NCBI RefSeq assembly: GCF_051097895.1
Contig: NZ_CP142525.1
Coordinates: 1,680,001-1,712,000, forward strand
Direction: 5' to 3'
DNA: 32,000 bases
Origin: Psychrobacter sp. HD31
GTDB taxonomy: Bacteria; Pseudomonadota; Gammaproteobacteria; Pseudomonadales; Moraxellaceae
Both the position numbers and the translations under genes were made by a program. Of this stretch, positions 2,985 to 31,062 are shown piece after piece. The notes under the pieces are model-generated. The model saw only the letters and a list, made by a program, of their open reading frames with translations, made no database searches and was not told the DNA's origin. How positions within the stretch are numbered: the first letter of the stretch is position 1; the number at the start of each line of letters is the position of its first letter.

Positions 2985-4643
2985 ATGGCTCAATACATCT
3001 ACACCATGAACAATGTGTCAAAACTTGTTCCACCCAAGCGTGAAATCTTAAAAAACATTAACTTATCATTTTTTCCAGGTGCCAAAATTGGTGTTTTAGG
3101 TCTTAATGGTGCGGGTAAATCTACCTTGCTAAAAATTATGGCAGGCGTTGACAAAGAGTTCAGCGGTGAAGCACGCCCACAAGCAGGCATTAAAGTTGGC
3201 TATCTTGAGCAAGAACCACAATTAGACCCAGAAAAAGACGTGCGTGGCAATGTTGAAGATGGTGTGCGCGAAGCATTAGATGCATTAGACCGTCTGAATG
3301 AAATTTATGCAGAATATGCATTACCTGATGCTGATTTTGATAAGCTCGCTGAAGAGCAGGGCAAAATGGAAGACATCATCCAATCATGGGATGCGCATAA
3401 CCTAAACAATCAGCTAGAAAAAGCGGCTGATGCCTTGCGTTTACCAGCCTGGGATGCCGATGTTAGTAAGCTTTCTGGTGGTGAAAAACGCCGTGTGGCG
3501 CTTTGCCGTCTGCTTTTGTCTAAGCCAGACATGCTACTACTTGACGAGCCAACCAACCACTTGGATGCCGAATCTGTGGCATGGTTAGAGCATTTCTTAC
3601 ACGACTACAGTGGTACTATTGTAGCAATTACCCACGATAGATATTTCCTTGATAATGTTGCTGAGTGGATTTTGGAGCTTGACCGTGGTCATGGGTATCC
3701 ATATGAAGGTAACTATACTGAATGGCTGATACAAAAAGACAGACGTTTAGAAGAGCAGCAAAAGCAGGAAGAGTCATTTGCAAAAGCCTTGAAAAAAGAA
3801 TTGGAATGGGTGCGTAAAAACCAAAAAGGTCAGCAAGCCAAATCTAAATCTCGTATGCAACGCTTTGAAGAATTGAACTCTAAAGAATTCCAAGAGCGTA
3901 ACGAAACCGCTGAAATCTATATTCCACCTGGTCCTCGTTTGGGTAATAAAGTGGTTGAAGTTAATGGCATCTCTAAGTCATTTGGCGACCGTTTGTTATA
4001 TGAAAACCTATCATTTACTGTGCCACCTGCGGCGATTGTGGGTATCATTGGTGCCAACGGTGCTGGTAAAACCACCTTATTTAACATGATTACAGGCAAA
4101 GACAGCCCAGATACAGGGACGGTTGAGCTGGGTGAGAGTGTTAAGGTTGCCTATGTTGGTCAGGTGCGTGATGAGCTAGATGATAAAAAGACAGTGTGGG
4201 AAGAAGTCTCAGATGGTTTGGATATGATTACCATCGGTGATTATGAAACTTCTAGCCGTGCTTATATTGGTCGCTTTAACTTTAAAGGTCAAGATCAGCA
4301 AAAACACGTTGGGCAACTCTCTGGTGGTGAGCGTAACCGCTTGCAACTGGCAAAAACGCTTAAGCAAGGGGCAAATGTTATCTTGCTGGATGAACCGTCT
4401 AACGACTTGGACGTAGAAACGTTGCGTGCTTTGGAGGATGCAATTCAAGTATTCCCAGGTACAGTGATGTGTGTATCGCATGACCGCTGGTTCTTAGACC
4501 GTATTGCCACACATATTTTAGCCTTTGAAGACGAAGGTCCGATTTGGTTTGATGGTAACTACTCTGAGTTTGAGGCGTATCGTAAAAAACAGTTGGGAGC
4601 CGATGCCACTCCAAAACGAGTTAAACATAAAAAGATTTCTTAA
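2985..4643 (+). CDS. ettA: Energy-dependent translational throttle protein EttA (ABC-F ATPase)
   Basis: The N-terminus MAQYIYTMNNVSKLVPPKREILKNINLSFFPGAKIGVLGLNGAGKSTLL is typical of EttA/YjjK. It has two ABC cassettes (Walker A GLNGAGKST and GANGAGKTT; signatures LSGGEKRR and LSGGERNR; Walker B LLLDEPTNHLD and ILLDEPSNDLD) and no TM domain. Confidence 0.95.
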   Translation: MAQYIYTMNNVSKLVPPKREILKNINLSFFPGAKIGVLGLNGAGKSTLLKIMAGVDKEFSGEARPQAGIKVGYLEQEPQLDPEKDVRGNVEDGVREALDALDRLNEIYAEYALPDADFDKLAEEQGKMEDIIQSWDAHNLNNQLEKAADALRLPAWDADVSKLSGGEKRRVALCRLLLSKPDMLLLDEPTNHLDAESVAWLEHFLHDYSGTIVAITHDRYFLDNVAEWILELDRGHGYPYEGNYTEWLIQKDRRLEEQQKQEESFAKALKKELEWVRKNQKGQQAKSKSRMQRFEELNSKEFQERNETAEIYIPPGPRLGNKVVEVNGISKSFGDRLLYENLSFTVPPAAIVGIIGANGAGKTTLFNMITGKDSPDTGTVELGESVKVAYVGQVRDELDDKKTVWEEVSDGLDMITIGDYETSSRAYIGRFNFKGQDQQKHVGQLSGGERNRLQLAKTLKQGANVILLDEPSNDLDVETLRALEDAIQVFPGTVMCVSHDRWFLDRIATHILAFEDEGPIWFDGNYSEFEAYRKKQLGADATPKRVKHKKIS

Positions 4644-17553: not shown

Positions 17554-17627
17554 AGTCTTCTCTCTTTATAAAAAATAGGTGGTTAATATAAGTTATAGTC
17601 AATATGTCATATTAATATTTTAAAATT

Positions 17628-17657
17628 TGATTATCATCTTTAAGTGGTGATTAATCA
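17628..17657. promoter_or_regulatory. Pair of short palindromes TGATTATCA (17628-17636) and TGATTAATCA (17648-17657) upstream of the FKBP gene
   Basis: The two palindromes start 20 bp apart and lie 75-105 bp upstream of the ATG at 17553 (minus strand). Function unknown. Confidence 0.25.
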
Positions 17658-18017
17658 TTTTGCTTCAAGGGTCTATATTAAAAAAGGATACTTTTAACTG
17701 TTTAATATTTAAATATCGCCTTTAAGATAAGTAAGATGACATAGCAAAACATAGCCATCTTTTGGTATTTTTAACGTCTTAGCATACAATGTAGTAAATG
17801 TGTAAATTTATGTTAATATAATTACATATTTATACATTTATATTGCTTTAAGTTAAGGTTTCTAACTTTATTAACTGGATGTTTTGGGTTACAGTTAAAG
17901 TAATAGTTTTAATAAAACTAATCATTATTAAATGATGGAATAAAAATAGGGCAGTCATACTGGTAAGTATAGGTTAGCTGCTATTTAATTTAAATGTGAA
18001 TTTAATTGGAGGATTCC

Positions 18018-19478
18018 ATGAATATGAATAATATATTTGCATGGTTCAATCAGAATTTAAATGGCCCAGCAGGCTCGGTCATTGGTGCAATTTTGTTTTT
18101 TGTCATTGGTTGGATTATTGCCTTAATTTTGGCAGCAGTTGTACGTAAAATGCTTGGTAGTGTTAATGTTAACCAGCGTATGAACTCTGCGACAAATCAG
18201 CAATACGATATTGAAGGCATTGTTGCCAAGATTGTATTTTGGTTTGCCTTTATGCTTGCCATTGCAACGGCTCTAGAGCAACTAAACTTACAATCAATCT
18301 CTGCGCCATTTGCAAACATGATTAACCAAGTGTTGTCATTTGTACCAAGCATTATTGGTGCAGCGGCAATTGGCTTAATTGGTTGGGTTATTGCAACGGT
18401 TATCCGTAACCTAATTACGGTGGCGTTATCAAAAACAACAATGGATGAGAAGCTTACAGCACAAGCGGGCGTACAGCCAATGAGCAACACCATTGCTGAT
18501 GTTATCTATTGGTTTATCCTTTTATTGGTACTTACTTTGGTACTAAACCAACTTGGTATGACCAGCCTACTTGAGCCGTTAAATGGCATGATTGCTAAGA
18601 TTACTGGTTTCTTACCAAATGCTTTATTAGCTGCGTTCACCTTCTTTGTTGGTTATATTGCTGCTAAAATTTTACGTGGCATCACTACTAACTTAGTAGC
18701 GGCAACAAACGTACAGTCGCTTGTTTCTAAAGCGGGTGTGAGTGAAAAAACAAGCCTACCAAACTTAGCGGGTTCTGCTGTATTCTTAGTGGTTGTACTA
18801 ACTGCGTTGGTCATGGCACTAAACACGCTTAAAGTTGACGTTATTGCGCGCCCAGCTACCAACATGATTGATAAAATGATGGGTGCAATCCCTAATATCT
18901 TGATGGCAGTTGTTGTGTTAACAGCGTTCTACTTCATTAGTAAACTAATTGCAGACCTAGTGAAAGGTTTATTGGTAAATACAGAAGTTAATAGCTTGCC
19001 TTCTAAACTTGGTATCATTTCTGACGATGAATGTAGCTGCCAGTTAACTGATTTGATTGGTAATGCGATTGTATTCTTTGCTATGCTGTTTGGTGTGATT
19101 TTGGCTGCTGATTTGCTAGGCTTTGATCAGATTAGTGAAATGGTTACTATGTTCATTAACTTTGGTGCAGATGTTATCCTTGGTGCAATCATCATGGTTA
19201 TCGGCTTTTGGTTGGCTAACTTGGTTGCTGGTTTTGTTAGTAACTCTGAACAAGGCTCAACCTTCTTAGCAAACACAGTTCGTGTCCTTATCATGGGCTT
19301 GGTAATTGCGATGGGTCTTAAAGCAATGGGTATTGCAGACTCAATTGTAAACTTAGCATTTGGTTTAACACTTGGTGCGGTTGCAGTGGCATTTGCTTTA
19401 TCGTTTGGTCTTGGTGGTCAAGAGGCAGCAGCTCGCTATCTTCGTAACCTACAAGATAAAATGGATAACGATAAGTAA
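18018..19478 (+). CDS. Polytopic membrane protein made of five tandem conserved-TM-helix (PF05552-like) modules; no MscS channel domain
   Basis: A GGAGGA RBS at 18008-18013 supports the ATG at 18018 (or 18024) rather than the track's TTG at 18006. Five two-helix modules of about 91 aa recur, anchored on VIGWIIA, LIGWVIA, FVGYIAA, TAFYFIS and VIGFWLA. Confidence 0.7.
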   Translation: MNMNNIFAWFNQNLNGPAGSVIGAILFFVIGWIIALILAAVVRKMLGSVNVNQRMNSATNQQYDIEGIVAKIVFWFAFMLAIATALEQLNLQSISAPFANMINQVLSFVPSIIGAAAIGLIGWVIATVIRNLITVALSKTTMDEKLTAQAGVQPMSNTIADVIYWFILLLVLTLVLNQLGMTSLLEPLNGMIAKITGFLPNALLAAFTFFVGYIAAKILRGITTNLVAATNVQSLVSKAGVSEKTSLPNLAGSAVFLVVVLTALVMALNTLKVDVIARPATNMIDKMMGAIPNILMAVVVLTAFYFISKLIADLVKGLLVNTEVNSLPSKLGIISDDECSCQLTDLIGNAIVFFAMLFGVILAADLLGFDQISEMVTMFINFGADVILGAIIMVIGFWLANLVAGFVSNSEQGSTFLANTVRVLIMGLVIAMGLKAMGIADSIVNLAFGLTLGAVAVAFALSFGLGGQEAAARYLRNLQDKMDNDK

Positions 19479-26614: not shown

Positions 26615-26631
26615 AATACATTATTAGTTTT

Positions 26632-26665
26632 AAAAAAAAGAGCCTTTGTTAAGGCTCTTTTTTTA
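26632..26665 (+). terminator. Rho-independent terminator of the nqr operon
   Basis: A-run, GAGCCTT (26640-26646), loop TGTT, AAGGCTC (26651-26657), then T7. Confidence 0.8.
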
Positions 26666-26735
26666 TGAGATACAGTGTTGTATTGGCAATATGCATCTTA
26701 TGTTAATTAGCCAACTTTCTGATAACACCAGATGT

Positions 26736-26752
26736 TTTGTATTTAATACAAA
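26736..26752. promoter_or_regulatory. Orphan 17-bp palindrome TTTGTATT-T-AATACAAA
   Basis: Perfect 8-bp arms around one central base, in non-coding DNA downstream of nqrF. No adjacent gene start. Confidence 0.2.
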
Positions 26753-27007
26753 CCTAACTAAGAAAAACAGCTTGAAGATATAGCAAATAAAACAATTCTT
26801 GAGTTTTAAGTATTTATATAACCGTCTATTTTTAGCTGAATCATCTAAGTAAGTGTTTTTTTAGTATTTGAAAAGTATATATACTAGCTACAACCTACAA
26901 TAAAAAAAGTAATGTCAGTACCAGAAGAAAGCAAAAGAAGAAAAGTGAATAAAAATTATTTTATGAGTTAATGGTGCTTTATGGCTAATAGGTTTTTTAG
27001 GGAGCAT

Positions 27008-27044
27008 AAAAAAGATAAATACATCAATGGGATGTATTTATCTT
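27008..27044 (-). terminator. Rho-independent terminator of the secreted Cys-rich protein gene
   Basis: Perfect 14-bp stem AAGATAAATACATC (27012-27025) / GATGTATTTATCTT (27031-27044). On the minus strand it is followed by TTTTTTAT. Confidence 0.8.
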
Positions 27045-27068
27045 AGTATTTGTGTGCATTAGTGGATC

Positions 27069-28064
27069 TTATTGCTGTGACCAACAGTTACCATTTGGTT
27101 GGTCATTGATATTGACCCAAAAGCGTTTGTTATTGACTTGTGAGCCGATATTACCAAATGATTTAAAGTTCCAGTGTCGACCATTATGAAACTCTGCAAC
27201 TTCCCAGCCTTTACCAAATTCTTTTTCACAAACTTGGTTAGCCTTATAAAGTTTATCTAAACCGGCAGTTGCTGGTGCAATTGGTCGAGTGGTTGCAACC
27301 ACTTGTTTTGCCCATTGGTTATACTGATTAGGTGTAGACACTGAGGCAGGTTTATCTAAAGCGAGTTTTTTTCTGCACAAGATTGGTAATTTGGTTTTAC
27401 ACATGGTATCGCCTTTGTATGGGTTACATTCATTTGCGCCATTACTGTAACCACAGCCGACATGTACCACGCCAGTAATACCATCTACACCATGCTTACG
27501 CCATGTCATGCCTTTTTTATCCGATTCACAAGTTATTTGTAACTTGAGCAAGGCTGATTGAACTTTAGTATCATCCTGAACATAAAAACTAAAGCGTTGA
27601 TTGCTTGTTAAACTATTAAGCAGGTTCCTGCCATTAGGTAAGCTGGCTAAATTGTAGCTAAGGTTTTTGCTTTGGTTCATTGAATTGCTAGATGACCAAG
27701 GTCTCACAGAGTATATGCTTTGACCATTTTGTGCGATACCAAAACTATCGTTTGTTGGTATATTTCTTCCATTAGGTTTTATTCTGACATTAAATTTAGC
27801 ACCAGTGACAGAACAACCCTTTTTTACTTTAAAACGCATGGTTTCTAAAAACATACGGTCCATTTGAGAGTTGTTATATCCAGCAATCCATCGACCGTTA
27901 ACTTGCGAAGGGTAGTTCCATGTTTGCTGTGGAAAATCAGCTTGTAATGGTTGGGTAGTGCTACTGGCATTTTTCGATATGGTCTGTGTGGTTGTTTGAG
28001 CAAACACAGCAGCTGAAGAAAATGCAGAAACTAAAATGACTGTTTTTATTGCTAGTTTTTTCAT
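27069..28064 (-). CDS. Secreted hypothetical protein, 8 Cys in the mature part, family not recognised
   Basis: Sec signal MKKLAIKTVILVSAFSSAAVFA|QTT. It has a beta-rich N-terminal half bracketed by two Cys (KKGC...ITCE), a Cys-dense linker (GCGYSNGANECNPYKGDTMCKTKLPILC), and a C-terminal region ending ...CEKEFGKGWEVAEFHNGRHWNFKSFGN...RFWVNINDQPNGNCW. A strong terminator lies downstream. Confidence 0.7.
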   Translation of the reverse strand: MKKLAIKTVILVSAFSSAAVFAQTTTQTISKNASSTTQPLQADFPQQTWNYPSQVNGRWIAGYNNSQMDRMFLETMRFKVKKGCSVTGAKFNVRIKPNGRNIPTNDSFGIAQNGQSIYSVRPWSSSNSMNQSKNLSYNLASLPNGRNLLNSLTSNQRFSFYVQDDTKVQSALLKLQITCESDKKGMTWRKHGVDGITGVVHVGCGYSNGANECNPYKGDTMCKTKLPILCRKKLALDKPASVSTPNQYNQWAKQVVATTRPIAPATAGLDKLYKANQVCEKEFGKGWEVAEFHNGRHWNFKSFGNIGSQVNNKRFWVNINDQPNGNCWSQQ

Positions 28065-28165
28065 GGCAGTATTCCTTGTAAAGTGTTGTTTAATTGTTCG
28101 TTAAGTTAAGTCCTTCATTTCGATACCACTAGAATTTAATAATAATTTCAATCACATTTTCAGGT

Positions 28166-28185
28166 AACTGTAGATATCTACAGGT
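28166..28185. promoter_or_regulatory. Lux-box-like palindrome AACTGTAGATATCTACAGGT (perfect 16-bp core, 28168-28183); candidate LuxR-family operator for divergent promoters
   Basis: CTGTAGATATCTACAG is perfectly self-complementary. Its centre at 28175.5 is 111.5 bp from the ATG at 28064 (-) and 110.5 bp from the ATG at 28286 (+). GATAAT (28206-28211, + strand) and TATTAT (28144-28139, - strand) sit about 30-31 bp on either side. Confidence 0.5.
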
Positions 28186-28285
28186 AGGTCTGCTCATTCA
28201 AACATGATAATACTAGTTAGATTTAAATCTAAAAAATAATGTACACTAAAATCTATATCTGACAAAAATTAGGTAGCATGAAGGG

Positions 28286-30133
28286 ATGAAAAGACTACTT
28301 GTTTATATATGCTTAATGTTTATGGTATTAATTACTTGCTCATTTAGTTGGGCAGGTGGTACAAGTAAGGTATTGCCAAAATATTGGCAGTTTTATCAAA
28401 CCAATGACGCTAACTTGCATTACTCTGATGTTAAAGAAAGCAAATGGCAGCCTGTTGATGCGAGTAAGGTGTTAAGAACGAATCCCAAAAATGGAATTTA
28501 TGGCTGGTATCTCATTAATTTTGATATCGATGATGTTCATAATACAGATGATGAAATAAATGATCAGGTGTCACTATTTATTAGTAGAATCCGCCATGCT
28601 GATGAAACTTGGATAAATGGTAAAAAAATAGGCGGGGTTGGAAAAATTGAGAAACCTTGGGAGTTAATTGGTAATAATCCCAAAAACATGCCCAGAAAAT
28701 ACCCTGTCCCACGCAATCTACTAAAAAATGAAAATAACCTATTAGCGATAAAAGTGAGTCTCGGCTTTGCGAACTCTTGGGGAGCGATGCAGCCAGGCAG
28801 TGTGGGGCTTAATGCCAAAAGCATATTTTTTGCTAACAAAGCAGATGTCGATGCGTATTACCAAAAAACAGTGCTGCAAGATGTAATTTTTGATACATGT
28901 TTGATTCTGTTGAGTTTGGTTAACATGTTTATCATTATATTTTTATTTAGACGTTCTATTCATAATTTTAGAGAGTTTGGGTGGTTGTTTGTTGATAGCG
29001 TGGTGTTGTTGGGTAGTATTTTTTTGTTGGATATTACCAATGTATTAAAAATTTCGATTCCTTATAGTGGTTATCTGTTGATGTTGTCGATATTTCTGAC
29101 ACCACTCGTGGTTGCCATGTATTTTTGGTCAATGTATCAAAACATTCCCAAAAAACAGGTTACCGTCATTTTTTGCTTAGTGCTTTTTTGCTCTCTTTCT
29201 ATGTTTTTGCCTATTTTTTCTGAGGGGCAAAAACATGTCTTATGGATTAGTTGGTGTATATTCCATGCTTTTTTATTACTCTACAGTTTGTTATCGGCCG
29301 TCATTGGTGTAAAAAATAAAATGATAGGCGCAAGGGCACAGCTTTTTGGTATGGTTATTTTTATTTTTTCAATTCGTACACAATGGTTACCAACTGACCT
29401 TTTTACGCATAGAAATGTTGTGATTGGTTCACTGATTATGCGCTATGCTTTTTTGTTTTCTTATTTTCAGCGCATCAATCAAATGAGCTATGATTATAAG
29501 CGTTTATCACAACATTTACTTTCGACCATTGAGCAACATAAACAAAACATTGCCAGAGACTTGCATGATGACTTAGGGCAACGTTTATCAGCGATAAAGT
29601 TACGAATGCTGTTGCTGTCTGGTGACAATAAGCAAGCGTCTATAAACTACATTAAAGATGAAGTAGATGCTACCATGGGTGCTGTACGTGAATTAATGCA
29701 AGGGTTACATCCGTTTGTACTTGAAGAACATGGCTTTGCAACCGCATTAAAAGTCGAGTCGCAGCGGATTGCTAAGCTTTATAATGTCGATATCTCATTG
29801 CAGGCAGAAGATATTGAATTAGATTTTGAGAATAAAAAACATCTTTTTAGAATTTTTCAAGAAACCGTTAATAATGCAATAAAGCATGGGCAGGCCAAGC
29901 ATATACAAGTTAAATTGTATATGAAAAAGCAGAGACTATTTTTTACGGTAGTAGATGATGGCGTTGGTTTTAGTGTTAATGTTAATGATTCGCACATTGC
30001 TGGCAGAGGATTTGGATTGATTAGCTTAAAAGAAAGAGTCGCGATTTTGGATGGGCATCTTTTTATTACGTCGCAGTTAAATCAAGGTTGTAAAGTTAAA
30101 ATATGGTTACCGATATCCTCAACGAGTCACTAA
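28286..30133 (+). CDS. Sensor histidine kinase, 7TMR-DISM-type (galactose-binding-like periplasmic domain + 7 TM + HisKA_3 + HATPase_c)
   Basis: Signal/TM1 LLVYICLMFMVLITCSFSWA. The periplasmic domain has a GH2-N/7TMR-DISMED2-like pattern (GWYLINFDI...LFISRIRHADETWINGKKIGG...NNLLAIKV). About seven hydrophobic segments follow. H-box IARDLHDDLGQRLSAIK, N-box ETVNNAIKHGQA, G-boxes VVDDGVGF and GRGFGLISLKERV. Confidence 0.85.
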   Translation: MKRLLVYICLMFMVLITCSFSWAGGTSKVLPKYWQFYQTNDANLHYSDVKESKWQPVDASKVLRTNPKNGIYGWYLINFDIDDVHNTDDEINDQVSLFISRIRHADETWINGKKIGGVGKIEKPWELIGNNPKNMPRKYPVPRNLLKNENNLLAIKVSLGFANSWGAMQPGSVGLNAKSIFFANKADVDAYYQKTVLQDVIFDTCLILLSLVNMFIIIFLFRRSIHNFREFGWLFVDSVVLLGSIFLLDITNVLKISIPYSGYLLMLSIFLTPLVVAMYFWSMYQNIPKKQVTVIFCLVLFCSLSMFLPIFSEGQKHVLWISWCIFHAFLLLYSLLSAVIGVKNKMIGARAQLFGMVIFIFSIRTQWLPTDLFTHRNVVIGSLIMRYAFLFSYFQRINQMSYDYKRLSQHLLSTIEQHKQNIARDLHDDLGQRLSAIKLRMLLLSGDNKQASINYIKDEVDATMGAVRELMQGLHPFVLEEHGFATALKVESQRIAKLYNVDISLQAEDIELDFENKKHLFRIFQETVNNAIKHGQAKHIQVKLYMKKQRLFFTVVDDGVGFSVNVNDSHIAGRGFGLISLKERVAILDGHLFITSQLNQGCKVKIWLPISSTSH

Positions 30134-30152
30134 GGACAACTGACTCGTTGAG
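30118..30152. terminator. Perfect 12-bp hairpin spanning the kinase stop codon, between the convergent kinase and regulator genes
   Basis: CTCAACGAGTCA (30118-30129), an 11-nt loop containing the TAA at 30131-30133, and TGACTCGTTGAG (30141-30152). No clear U tract on either side. Confidence 0.45.
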
Positions 30153-30163
30153 ACATTGTATAA

Positions 30164-30793
30164 TTATATGATCTGATTTTTTATGGCAAAGGTTACGGCT
30201 TGCGTACGGTTTGATACACCAAGCTTTACAAAACAGTTGGCTAGATGAAAACATACCGTTCTTTCAGTGATGCCCAGTTGATGGGCAATTTGCTTATTTA
30301 AGTCGCCATTAATAATACATTTAAGGATTTCCCGTTCACGGTTAGTAAGCTTAATATCTGTGGAATGATTTTGTAACTCGCTAACGGTTTCTATTAAGAA
30401 CGGAGAAATAAACTGACCGCCAGAGTTTACCTCTTGAATGGCTTCTAGCAAATCTTCAAAGGCATTGTCTTTTACAACATAACCATTTAATCCCAGTTGT
30501 AATAGTTGGTTTGCTCGATAGGCATCATTGAGCATGGTTAAAGCAATGACCTTGGTATCCATCTGATTATCTTCAATAAATAGAATGAGCTCATCAATAG
30601 ACGTGCCTGGCATTGATAAATCTACTAATGCAACATCAGGTTGGAAGGTTTTTATTAATGACAAAGTATCTGAACCATTATTGGCACTGCCTTGCAGCTC
30701 TGTCCATGGTAGTTTATCAAACAACACGCTTAGCCCATCTAAAAATATTTGATGGTCGTCTGCAACAATAAGCGTGATAAGAGAGTGACACAT
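30164..30793 (-). CDS. NarL/FixJ-family response regulator (REC + LuxR/GerE HTH)
   Basis: REC residues are intact (IVADDH, VALVDLSMPG, VIALT, YVVKD). The C-terminal LuxR HTH is LTNREREILKCIINGDLNKQIAHQLGITERTVCFHLANCFVKLGVSNRTQAV. Confidence 0.88.
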   Translation of the reverse strand: MCHSLITLIVADDHQIFLDGLSVLFDKLPWTELQGSANNGSDTLSLIKTFQPDVALVDLSMPGTSIDELILFIEDNQMDTKVIALTMLNDAYRANQLLQLGLNGYVVKDNAFEDLLEAIQEVNSGGQFISPFLIETVSELQNHSTDIKLTNREREILKCIINGDLNKQIAHQLGITERTVCFHLANCFVKLGVSNRTQAVTFAIKNQII

Positions 30794-31062
30794 TGCAAAG
30801 ATACTTTTGGTTGTTATGGTTAATGTAACGCTAAAATCAATTTGCAGCGTTTAAGTGTTAGTTAAAGAAATTTAAAGTGGTATAGCAAGTTATTAATAAT
30901 ACTGGAGATAATTAATTAATCTTAATCTCTTTTATCCTATCACATGCGTGAATAGCTTGTATAATTATCCCTTAAAATAATACGGCCGTTATTTAATAGT
31001 GGTTATTTAAGCAAAAGATACTCAAGAATTTTTTGATAAGATAGGCTTAGTGGTTCAAACTT

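Follow-up and report, generated by a model that had tools for sequence, protein, structure and literature searches.

A putative two-component circuit with a lux-box-like operator shared by an exported-protein gene and a sensor kinase gene in Psychrobacter sp. HD31

Three neighbouring genes of Psychrobacter sp. HD31, lying in a stretch of 32,000 nucleotides that we analysed as a whole (the window), probably constitute a self-contained two-component circuit, in which the gene for an exported 331-aa protein (here sec331) and the gene for a sensor kinase would both be activated through one operator. The new evidence is the operator palindrome itself, a conserved element of the divergent promoter region (Table 1). 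The three-gene circuit, probably one unit, would be an uncharacterised variant of ordinary bacterial signalling.

In the circuit that we propose, the periplasmic, galactose-binding-like domain of the kinase, linked to a membrane block of several passes, would sense a signal, presumably an extracytoplasmic cue, and the kinase would autophosphorylate on H427 of its HisKA_3 domain. D58 of the NarL/LuxR-type regulator, whose gene is convergent with that of the kinase, would then receive the phosphate from H427. As a phosphorylated dimer the regulator, which we infer to be the operator-binding protein, would bind the 20-bp palindrome; if the presumed transcription start sites are correctly placed, this site has its centre near -42.5/-43.5 at both of the back-to-back promoters. 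There it would presumably activate, rather than repress, the sec331 gene and the kinase gene; since the operator also faces the latter, positive autoregulation is implied. The regulator gene, on the opposite strand, would be transcribed from a separate promoter of its own.

The gene block and its surroundings

The three reading frames are present at exact coordinates, and the ORF list gives the same coordinates and strands as the earlier note. Profile searches also bore out its placement of the block, between nqrF (TIGR01941, 703 bits), with its terminator hairpin, and an EamA gene. The terminator-like hairpin behind the sec331 gene has an RNA fold of -14.9 kcal/mol (z = -8.2). At the kinase/regulator junction, the inverted repeat folds into a strong hairpin on either strand, without a U tract (-18.4 and -22.4 kcal/mol, z = -4.3 and -4.8), and no counterpart was found at this junction in the other loci compared.

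Table 1 Features of the three-gene block (window coordinates)
Feature	Position	Strand	Remarks
nqrF terminator hairpin	26633-26664		5' of the block
Terminator-like hairpin	27012-27044	-	directly 3' of sec331 gene; 14-bp stem, then T run
sec331 gene, exported two-domain protein	27069-28064	-	331 aa; signal peptide residues 1-22
sec331 C-terminal Cys-rich domain	27072-27524	-	residues 181-331
sec331 N-terminal beta-sandwich domain	27525-27998	-	~residues 23-180; Cys84, Cys179; motif YVQDDTKV
Putative -10 hexamer, sec331 promoter	28139-28144	-	TATTAT; starts 21 nt past operator
Lux-box-like operator	28166-28185	.	AACTGTAGATATCTACAGGT; 20 bp
Putative -10 hexamer, kinase promoter	28206-28211	+	GATAAT; 20 nt past operator
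Sensor histidine kinase	28286-30133	+	615 aa; N-terminal signal/anchor
Galactose-binding-like periplasmic domain	28358-28870	+	~residues 25-195
Multi-TM block	28874-29473	+	~residues 197-396
HisKA_3	29543-29713	+	H427
HATPase_c	29834-30115	+	Pfam match
12-bp perfect inverted repeat	30118-30152	.	over kinase stop codon and 30-bp gap to regulator gene
NarL/LuxR-type response regulator	30164-30793	-	209 aa; REC + GerE HTH
GerE HTH	30185-30349	-	Pfam match
REC	30434-30769	-	D12, D13, D58, T86, K108

The earlier note had taken the AT-rich spacers as a mark of insertion into a housekeeping neighbourhood. The long spacers around and within the block are indeed AT-rich (GC 0.27-0.29), but not unusually so for the window, whose remaining intergenic regions range from 0.19 to 0.40 and include one of 452 bp at 0.235. 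Nor does GC3 set the three genes (0.31-0.33) apart from the neighbouring housekeeping genes (0.28-0.37). An origin of the block by horizontal transfer, as an accessory island inserted between nqrF and the EamA gene (a question independent of function), would agree with the synteny with Psychrobacter and Moraxella (hisA-nqrABCDEF) stopping exactly at nqrF, with the finding that neither the module nor the EamA gene lies within 10 kb at any of 80 nqrF loci, with the rare and patchy kinase and sec331 families, and with an imperfect 37-nt inverted repeat (26787-26823 and 31001-31037) that brackets the block. This repeat is, however, marginal, its score being reached by 2% of shuffles (p ~0.02), and the nearest reference genomes (Psychrobacter) are only 85% identical in NqrF, so that loss of synteny is expected anyway. 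Furthermore, no integrase, transposase or tRNA was found, in line with the earlier remark that the block lacks a mobility gene, and PLSDB contains no plasmid-borne relative of the kinase sensor region. With no compositional signal of insertion, we regard such an origin as quite unlikely.

Domain architecture of the three products

The kinase matched the Pfam models HisKA_3 (3e-9, residues 420-476) and HATPase_c (2.4e-13) and, weakly, BetaGal_gal-bd (1.3e-3, residues 72-151). Hydropathy gave an N-terminal signal/anchor and five clear hydrophobic segments within residues 200-342, and two more, weaker ones up to about residue 396 were read by eye. The window kinase scores below every Pfam 7TM or DISMED model; within its family, 16 of 22 members have weak 7TMR-DISM_7TM matches, none of the 22 has a sequence match to 7TMR-DISMED2, and the periplasmic domain scores as BetaGal_gal-bd, GH2_N or a sialate O-acetylesterase CBM-like domain. 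The architecture proposed earlier was thus recovered from the signal/anchor through to HATPase_c, but not its assignment to 7TMR-DISMED2. A glycan as the sensed cue would be a guess from the fold class. Among solved structures, residues 388-603 matched DesK (1e-21) and VraS (6e-20), and NCBIfam returned UhpB, MctS and LiaS at 1e-26 to 1e-32, with scores all far under the equivalog cut-offs (e.g. 111 bits versus 408 for UhpB).

The regulator matched Response_reg (3.4e-17) and GerE (3.4e-20), and its best solved relatives are NarL (6e-26), DesR (2e-25) and VraR. All five phospho-acceptor-site residues listed in Table 1 are in place, as had been claimed; the alignment shows no variation at D58, T86 and K108 and next to none at D12/D13. 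HisKA_3 kinases partner NarL-type regulators (NarX/NarL, DesK/DesR, UhpB/UhpA), systems that also supply the top matches in NCBIfam and PDB, and this, together with the intact catalytic and phospho-acceptor residues, supports a cognate pair, as far as sequence can tell.

For sec331, described earlier as an exported eight-cysteine protein without a family, no Pfam, NCBIfam or PDB relative was found: Pfam returned nothing at E ≤ 1 and NCBIfam a single noise match at 0.33. Its N-terminus is of Sec type (MKKLAIKTVILVSAFSSAAVFA, followed by Q), and the cysteines are at residues 84, 179, 204, 213, 222, 230, 279 and 327. In an AF2 model (pLDDT 84.7) the N-domain is all-beta, and Foldseek gave weak jelly-roll/CBM-like matches to it (BcsB, PorU, CBM11; E ≥ 1.2e-3, TM ≤ 0.28). 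The C-domain, in which alignments show the last six cysteines (204, 213, 222, 230, 279 and 327) to be conserved, was modelled with pLDDT 89.3 and pTM 0.87 and has no fold neighbour in PDB (best E 1.3) or in BFVD. It belongs to a family without annotation (1027 cluster representatives at E ≤ 1e-3), members of which usually sit C-terminally in secreted proteases and in lectin-like proteins, with S8, sedolisin and M10 proteases, Laminin_G_3, fasciclin, NHL and ricin domains as fusion partners. This position suggests an extracellular binding role, and we infer that sec331, with its CBM-like beta-sandwich and Cys-rich C-terminal module, may be an extracellular or periplasmic binding protein.

The operator and its two promoters

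The core of the operator is a perfect 16-bp palindrome, CTGTAGATATCTACAG (28168-28183), and its centre lies midway between the two start codons, at a distance of 111.5 bp to the ATG of sec331 and 110.5 bp to that of the kinase gene. It is the sole match in the window, where 0.09 would be expected at ≤3 mismatches. Ten distinct loci with a homologous kinase/regulator pair were compared (window/L004, L007, L009, L010, L011/L099, L012, L093, L094, L095/L097 and L098); L009, L094, L095, L011 and L098 are related, which leaves about six independent lineages. The operator is present at nine of the ten (metagenomic) loci, with the consensus ACCTGTAGATATCTACAGGT, in each case upstream of the kinase gene, of genes whose products have a signal peptide, or of both, and every operator-adjacent product carries a signal peptide. 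Not all sites are independent, as paralogous target genes were probably duplicated along with their promoters. A search with ACCTGTAG-N4-CTACAGGT, allowing ≤2 mismatches among the 16 specified bases, matched the window, L004, L009 (twice), L011, L093, L094 (three times) and L095 (twice), and gave no match in ~1.6 Mb from 80 unrelated nqrF loci; L007 and L010 have palindromic variants. In the JGI metagenome collection the exact 20-mer has four matches, three of them beside this kinase/regulator pair.

Of the 18 orientations that face a gene, 17 have a -10-like TANNNT beginning exactly 21 nt past the 20-mer; the eighteenth is the window toward the kinase, with GATAAT at 20 nt instead. The hexamer stands at 21 nt in 0 of 10 orientations that do not face a gene, and at any other offset it was never seen more than once. 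This fixed spacing places the operator centre near -42.5, where lux boxes have been reported (PMC4471428).

The Vibrio fischeri lux box, ACCTGTAGGATCGTACAGGT (PMC4444344), is likewise a 20-bp palindrome. It agrees with the operator at 15 of 20 bases and in both outer arms (ACCTGTA...TACAGGT); the four central bases are ATAT in the operator and GATC in the lux box. This likeness fits a reader with a GerE/LuxR-type HTH. LuxR is such a reader, and the lux box is centred near -42.5, overlapping the -35 region, as would be the case here (PMC4471428). In contrast to LuxR, the regulator would be switched by a phospho-receiver domain and not by one that binds acyl-homoserine lactone, and a single site in the window would serve two divergent promoters.

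The resemblance also suggests that the adjacency might be incidental, the palindrome being the site of a LuxR-family protein from elsewhere (a quorum-sensing LuxR or a LuxR solo), with the local regulator controlling other genes. At the L096 locus an exact, correctly spaced copy precedes a stand-alone REC gene, and the retrieved 4.9 kb contain no pair of this type, so another LuxR-type protein could use the box; conversely, L012 has the pair (kinase 50% identical) and no recognisable operator within the 8.8 kb available. Against this reading, operator and pair coincide in nine of ten distinct loci despite differing flanking genes, no other regulator gene is common to those loci, and no luxI or luxR-type gene was found among the window ORFs scanned. 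Operator variants moreover follow the local regulator as it diverges: the two loci with CTGTCG or CTGGCG operators encode Arg instead of Cys within the recognition helix (TV-C/R-FH), a weak indication that operator and helix co-vary. We therefore consider a foreign reader very unlikely.

The pair, its neighbours and related systems

The kinase and REC+GerE regulator genes are adjacent and convergent in all ten distinct loci, and their identities drop together (kinase/regulator 51/62, 50/58, 45/58, 45/53, 43/53, 35/43 and 31/36%). Convergence, which the earlier note had found atypical of a cognate pair, is therefore not a sign of non-cognate genes.

The target genes beside the pair differ from locus to locus: homologous kinases adjoin non-homologous secreted families of 424-432, 253, 322-337 and ~100-120 aa, and three kinase loci (L009, L011, L012) have no sec331-family neighbour. 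Elsewhere the two sec331 domains recur separately beside the pair, the N-domain in L093 (46% identity, fused to DUF7450) and in L010 (29.5%, in a 188-aa protein), and the C-domain in L007 (64%, with another N-terminus). The suggestion that sec331 is the dedicated output of the pair consequently stands in part. The conserved operator with its fixed -10 spacing favours an output, but not a dedicated one, because the operator faces the kinase gene too and other loci have unrelated secreted proteins beside the pair.

Alternatively, sec331 might act mainly as input or feedback, as a periplasmic accessory that hands a ligand to the periplasmic domain of the kinase or itself binds that domain, made from the same operator in a closed loop, much as CpxP acts on CpxA and LuxP on LuxQ. 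The divergent genes with one symmetric operator common to both would suit such a role, as would the occurrence of the family beside three types of envelope signalling system, namely the NarL-type pair (window, L007, L010, L093) and, for full-length relatives, an OmpR-type system (L005/L006) or an ECF sigma factor (L001-L003); a further full-length relative (L008) has no regulator alongside. In E. coli cpxP-cpxRA, too, the sensor operon and the gene of an exported protein are transcribed divergently, and the regulator-bound intergenic region common to both gives output and autoregulation. The likeness is one of architecture only: there is no homology, the kinase and regulator are of other classes, and CpxP is a small helical periplasmic protein, unlike sec331, for which feedback is hypothetical. 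Since the non-homologous secreted neighbours of homologous kinases argue against a conserved co-sensor, and the C-domain is mostly an appendage of secreted proteases and lectin-like proteins, we judge this role unlikely and favour sec331 as an output.

The kinase layout is like that of the 7TMR-DISM receptors (RetS and LadS of P. aeruginosa, RgsP of S. meliloti), in which a jelly-roll periplasmic domain (a predicted carbohydrate binder) leads into seven TM helices and then a signalling module in the cytoplasm (PMC6107284). Unlike these, the family here lacks the DISMED2 match, and as output it has a plain HisKA_3 kinase, paired with a NarL-type partner of its own, instead of a hybrid kinase or c-di-GMP enzyme; our literature search found no paper joining 7TMR-DISM and HisKA_3. 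In transmitter core and regulator architecture the pair is like the HisKA_3/NarL-family systems NarX-NarL, DesK-DesR, LiaS-LiaR, VraS-VraR and UhpB-UhpA. It differs from them in its sensor, a galactose-binding-like domain with a multi-TM block, in its putative operator, a lux-type 20-bp palindrome where NarL-type sites are heptamers, and in its gene order, which is not co-operonic but convergent, with 3' ends abutting or overlapping.

The three genes and their chromosomal setting

Judging from ORF calling, the exported-protein, kinase and regulator genes are all present where the earlier note had placed them. They lie between NqrF upstream (TIGR01941, 703 bits) and an EamA transporter downstream, and the remainder of the window carries ordinary chromosomal genes (tex, an ABC-F protein, plsB, tesB, ABC exporters, fkpA, hisA and nqrABCDEF). 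Beyond the nqrF terminator, the spacer 26615-27068 holds ~340 bp of AT-rich DNA with no ORF of at least 50 aa and no Rfam match. None of the window ORFs scanned matched ApbE, and the arrangement differs from that of Vibrio, where apbE/nqrM genes follow nqrF. A generic scan for promoters and terminators was uninformative, returning 15 promoter-like sites against 19 expected.

Features of the three-gene block, in window positions
Feature	Position	Strand	Sequence	Remark
nqrF terminator hairpin	26633-26664			strong, bidirectional; end of nqr operon
Second terminator hairpin	27012-27044			terminates the sec331 gene
sec331 gene	27069-28064	-		331-aa exported protein
Putative -10 of sec331	28144-28139	-	TATTAT	
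Operator	28166-28185		AACTGTAGATATCTACAGGT	20-bp lux-box-like palindrome
Operator core	28168-28183		CTGTAGATATCTACAG	perfect palindrome, within 221-bp divergent region
Putative -10 of kinase	28206-28211	+	GATAAT	
Kinase gene	28286-30133	+		615 aa
Inverted repeat	30118-30152			12 bp, perfect; spans kinase stop codon and 30-bp gap to convergent regulator gene
Regulator gene	30164-30793	-		209 aa

The same note had taken the block for an insertion into a housekeeping neighbourhood, and composition does not bear this out. The three genes have a GC3 of 0.31-0.33, compared with 0.28-0.37 for the other genes, and the AT-rich spacers, with a GC of 0.27-0.29, fall inside the 0.19-0.40 spanned by the window's other intergenic regions, one of which is 452 bp long at GC 0.235. 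We found no integrase or transposase domain and, in an Rfam search of the whole window, no tRNA or other RNA family. An imperfect 37-nt inverted repeat (core AATTCTTGAGT; 73% complementary) does bracket the block, with one copy in each AT-rich spacer (26787-26823 and 31001-31037); it is marginal, as 2% of shuffles score as well. Given this composition and a marginal repeat, an island origin of the block, a question separate from its function, remains unsupported.

Comparison with relatives gave little more on this point. Among 185,579 species genomes, the best relatives of NqrF are those of Psychrobacter (85%) and of Moraxella/Faucicola (80-81%), which share the hisA-nqrA-F order with the window; past nqrF the gene order is no longer shared. 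In none of 80 loci does the module or the EamA gene lie within 10 kb of nqrF, a result that is uninformative at such a distance (85% NqrF). One sequence alone comes closer, the 3.7-kb metagenome contig L004 (Logan SRR29889418_50911), which carries the same genes at 97-99% identity to those of the window. It indicates that the sample of run SRR29889418 contained the window organism, of a Moraxellaceae-like lineage, or a closely related one. The same run also yielded L007 (SRR29889418_2155), a divergent second locus with kinase, regulator and C-domain. Elsewhere in the window (17554-19478), a very AT-rich 452-bp spacer (GC 0.235) lies ahead of the gene for a 490-aa protein in which the PF05552 mechanosensitive-channel TM-helix repeat occurs three times.

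A sensor kinase with a convergent partner

The kinase carries a HisKA_3 domain (PF07730, E = 3e-9, residues 420-476) and an HATPase_c domain (PF02518, E = 2.4e-13, residues 517-610), and across 22 homologues the H-box L426-H427-D428 and residues N530, G559, G575 and G577 of the N and G boxes are invariant. Its hydropathy profile shows an N-terminal signal or anchor and five hydrophobic stretches that stand out clearly between residues 200 and 342; we read these as probably followed by two weaker ones up to ~residue 396. With Pfam, 7TMR-DISM_7TM (PF07695) has no match in the window kinase at E ≤ 1 and weak matches in 16 of the 22 homologues (best 3.6e-5). The periplasmic part weakly matches BetaGal_gal-bd (residues 72-151); 21 of the 22 family members match this model, and 8 of the 22 match BetaGal_ABD2. 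A 7TMR-DISMED2 domain, proposed in the earlier note, is not borne out by sequence: neither DISMED1 nor DISMED2 is among the families listed for these 22 proteins. The kinase departs from 7TMR-DISM receptors in having a galactose-binding-type domain in place of DISMED, although the fold class may be the same.

Searched against the PDB, the family profile matched a CBM-like domain of sialate O-acetylesterase (2.4e-8) and GH2 sugar-binding domains, and its C-terminal half matched DesK and VraS. Full-length homologues are few (about 21 among 5.8 billion protein clusters) and come entirely from metagenome/MAG-type assemblies; a plasmid search (PLSDB) with the sensor region returned no match, and in the literature we found no paper combining 7TMR-DISM with HisKA_3. 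The kinase probably belongs with the sensors that combine a jelly-roll domain and a 7TM block, few of whose ligands are known.

The regulator consists of a REC domain (PF00072, E = 3.4e-17), in which D12, D13, D58, T86 and K108 are all present, and a GerE/LuxR HTH (PF00196, E = 3.4e-20); LuxR quorum-sensing regulators differ in having an autoinducer-binding domain at the N-terminus, where this protein has REC. In every distinct locus retrieved, ten in all (window/L004, L007, L009, L010, L011/L099, L012, L093, L094, L095/L097 and L098), the kinase gene is followed by a REC+GerE regulator gene on the opposite strand, their 3' ends lying 7-54 nt apart or overlapping by 8-44 nt. Identities to the window proteins fall in parallel, from 51/62% (kinase/regulator) down to 31/36%. 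The convergent order had been regarded as atypical for cognate partners; because it is kept in 10/10 loci while identities fall together, we consider it a family trait of a cognate pair and not a juxtaposition of unrelated genes. Adjacency in ten loci and parallel divergence are indirect evidence, from which we predict specific phosphotransfer from the kinase to this regulator. The inverted repeat at the gene junction gives a strong hairpin in either strand (z about -4.3 and -4.8) and has no U tract. It is not kept at the junctions of the other loci, where the genes overlap by up to 44 nt, and is therefore not a family trait.

A lux-box-like operator and its predicted promoters

The operator is the single such site in the whole window, and its centre is 111.5 bp away from the start codon of sec331 and 110.5 bp from that of the kinase; the region upstream of the regulator gene (30794-31062) has no such site. 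Homologous loci carry copies with 0-2 mismatches to the consensus ACCTGTAGATATCTACAGGT / TGTACCTGTAGATATCTACAGGTACA, situated upstream of the genes adjoining the pair and often of the kinase gene too (two in L009, one in a divergent region of L011, one in L093, three in L094 and two in L095), and the most divergent loci have palindromic variants (AACTGTCGGATACGACAGTT in L007 and AACTGGCGAAAACGACAGGT in L010). By comparison, about 1.6 Mb of unrelated loci contained no match at ≤ 2 mismatches. The exact 20-mer occurs at four loci in the JGI metagenome collection, three of them with the kinase/regulator pair, including the newly found L098. Set against the V. fischeri lux box, ACCTGTAGGATCGTACAGGT, the consensus agrees at 15 of 20 positions, the outer arms being the same (PMC4444344), and the operator sequence itself appeared in no paper that we found.

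We oriented each operator site towards its adjacent gene and counted the offset of the -10-like hexamer. TANNNT begins exactly 21 nt past the 20-mer in 17 of 18 gene-facing orientations, the sole exception being the window site facing the kinase, with GATAAT at 20 nt; it is found at 21 nt in none of the ten orientations facing away from a gene, and any other offset is used at most once. With such spacing the palindrome would be centred about -42.5 to -43.5 relative to the inferred starts, overlapping the -35 region. This would match the arrangement of lux boxes, which are centred near -42.5 and overlap the -35 region (PMC4471428). The window operator appears to serve two back-to-back predicted promoters.

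A hint that a different LuxR-type protein might use the box comes from L012, a locus with the pair and no recognisable operator in its available 8.8 kb, and from L096 (JGI contig Ga0255338_1003386), whose 4.9 kb retrieved hold the exact 20-mer and no homologue of the window kinase or regulator. We disfavour this alternative, because box and pair otherwise co-occur locus by locus, and retain the adjoining regulator as the predicted reader. Its recognition helix (TV-x-FH) has a cysteine, C181 (alignment A4), where L007 and L010 have Arg, and the operator arm of these two loci reads CTGTCG or CTGGCG where the others read CTGTAG. The two changes may represent protein-DNA co-variation, a weak but suggestive sign from two lineages. 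On sequence comparison, the system is a two-component one of a type already known, in which the sensor/transmitter combination is unusual, the convergent order conserved and the operator lux-box-like.

Three further observations concern individual sites. At L096 the operator (3405-3424), with TAGTAT at the canonical 21-nt offset, stands upstream of a stand-alone 130-aa REC-domain gene, immediately beyond a class A beta-lactamase gene and its terminator. Where a locus has two or three copies (L094 219-238, 1970-1989 and 3147-3166; L095 233-252 and 1989-2008; L009 4423-4442 and 5867-5886), each stands ahead of a gene whose product has a signal peptide, a paralogous pair among them, and these promoters seem to have been duplicated along with their genes. 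The window also holds a second perfect 16-bp palindrome, TTAGATTTAAATCTAA (28217-28232), close to where transcription of the kinase gene is predicted to begin; the palindrome is broken in the 97-99% identical L004 (ttagatttacacctaa), and so is probably not functional.

Secreted products and the C-domain of sec331

The products of operator-adjacent genes all have signal peptides, belong to no characterised family and are not homologous between loci. In L009, L094 and L095 they are the two paralogues, one of 424-432 aa and one of 253 aa, whose first 200 residues are about 70-75% identical, and in L011 and L098 proteins of 322-337 aa and about 100-120 aa. The sec331 family itself recurs beside the kinase/regulator pair in the window, L093, L010 and L007. 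L093, which has the closest kinase homologue (51%), encodes a protein 46% identical to the sec331 N-domain (~residues 23-180) and fused to DUF7450, whereas the 188-aa protein of L010 is the N-domain alone, and in L007 the C-domain (64% identity) is joined to another N-terminus. Elsewhere, full-length relatives adjoin an OmpR-type system (L005/L006) or an ECF sigma factor and an S8 peptidase (L001-L003, Cocleimonas), or have no regulator beside them (L008). The closest named full-length relative is in L001 (10001-13609, a Cocleimonas sp. MAG), followed by the ECF sigma factor and, beyond it, a 227-aa protein without Pfam match and the S8 peptidase. It is to S8 peptidases, too, that the sec331 C-domain is most often fused.

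According to the model that we prefer, the kinase would sense a cue, possibly a glycan, and phosphorylate the regulator, which would then bind the lux-type box as a dimer and activate the sec331 and kinase promoters. We regard this sequence of events, taken whole, as moderately probable. The proposal that the secreted protein is the output of the two-component system is strengthened by the operator and its promoter geometry. The insertion argument falls away. An alternative is that sec331 additionally, or instead, acts on the periplasmic domain of the kinase in the manner of CpxP, whose gene adjoins cpxRA in a comparable layout. The gene order here is compatible with such feedback, but the diversity of target proteins across loci speaks against it, and we disfavour it relative to the output model. 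In that model, the two-component system is predicted to control uncharacterised secreted proteins, one of which has an unannotated, structurally unmatched domain. If true, the circuit would be compact, with one defined operator and two defined promoters, and its small regulon would consist of secreted proteins. The likeness of operator and lux box would offer a natural experiment, in which the same HTH/DNA geometry is driven by phosphorylation and not by an autoinducer, and regulator and operator could serve synthetic biology as an orthogonal pair.

The sec331 protein has a Sec-type signal peptide and eight cysteines, and, as first suspected, cannot be assigned to a family: no Pfam or NCBIfam model matches, and a profile of 23 homologues found nothing among PDB sequences (best E = 5.4). 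Its AlphaFold2 model is confident (pLDDT 84.7) and has two domains. The N-domain is modelled as a beta-sandwich, weakly like the CBM-like jelly rolls of BcsB, PorU and CBM11, and a fold search with the whole model, a check suggested at the outset, gave weak beta-sandwich matches (TM ≤ 0.28). A CpxP/Spy homologue was considered and rejected, there being no Pfam match and the model being all-beta with a Cys-rich domain.

The C-domain (residues 181-331) has six conserved cysteines and, modelled alone, reaches a pLDDT of 89.3 and a pTM of 0.87. Fold searches found no neighbour for it in the PDB (best E 1.3, TM 0.16) or BFVD, for which reason an endostatin, C-type-lectin or DUF1554-like fold was dropped. 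Its profile matched 1027 representatives at E ≤ 1e-3 (140 at ≤ 1e-30) among 1.84 billion 50%-identity clusters, and in 110 of the best 150 the domain ends ≤ 5 residues from the protein C-terminus. In 20 long members scanned with Pfam, no model covered the C-domain itself, and its fusion partners were S8 subtilases (4), a sedolisin pro-domain, an M10 matrixin, Laminin_G_3 (2), fasciclin, NHL propellers and Ig-like repeats. The most economical reading of this domain context is that it is an extracellular binding or targeting module. C-domain proteins named in public sources are called "hypothetical"; with about 1000 clusters, no Pfam/NCBIfam model, no solved structural neighbour and many secreted proteases as partners, naming the family and solving its structure would annotate many such exported proteins.

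A broader joint reading strikes us as rather unlikely. It holds that the pair, together with its lux-type box, is a portable "sensor plus promoter" cassette by which different secreted-protein genes have repeatedly been captured; that the regulator is driven by phosphorylation and reads a quorum-sensing-type lux box from a class II position, which would directly link NarL-type two-component regulators with LuxR quorum-sensing activators in evolution and in mechanism; and that the 150-residue Cys-rich C-domain would be a previously undescribed fold, widespread in Proteobacteria, Actinomycetota and Deinococcota as an extracellular targeting module of proteases and lectins.

In plasmids, the C-domain has distant matches only, in Deinococcus and Streptomyces megaplasmids, the Streptomyces protein being fused to a ricin lectin. 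The latter, annotated "RICIN domain-containing protein" (L100 676-2860, Streptomyces sp. NBC_01237 plasmid NZ_CP108510.1), ends in the C-domain at 37.6% identity, and its gene lies directly downstream of one annotated "LuxR C-terminal-related transcriptional regulator".
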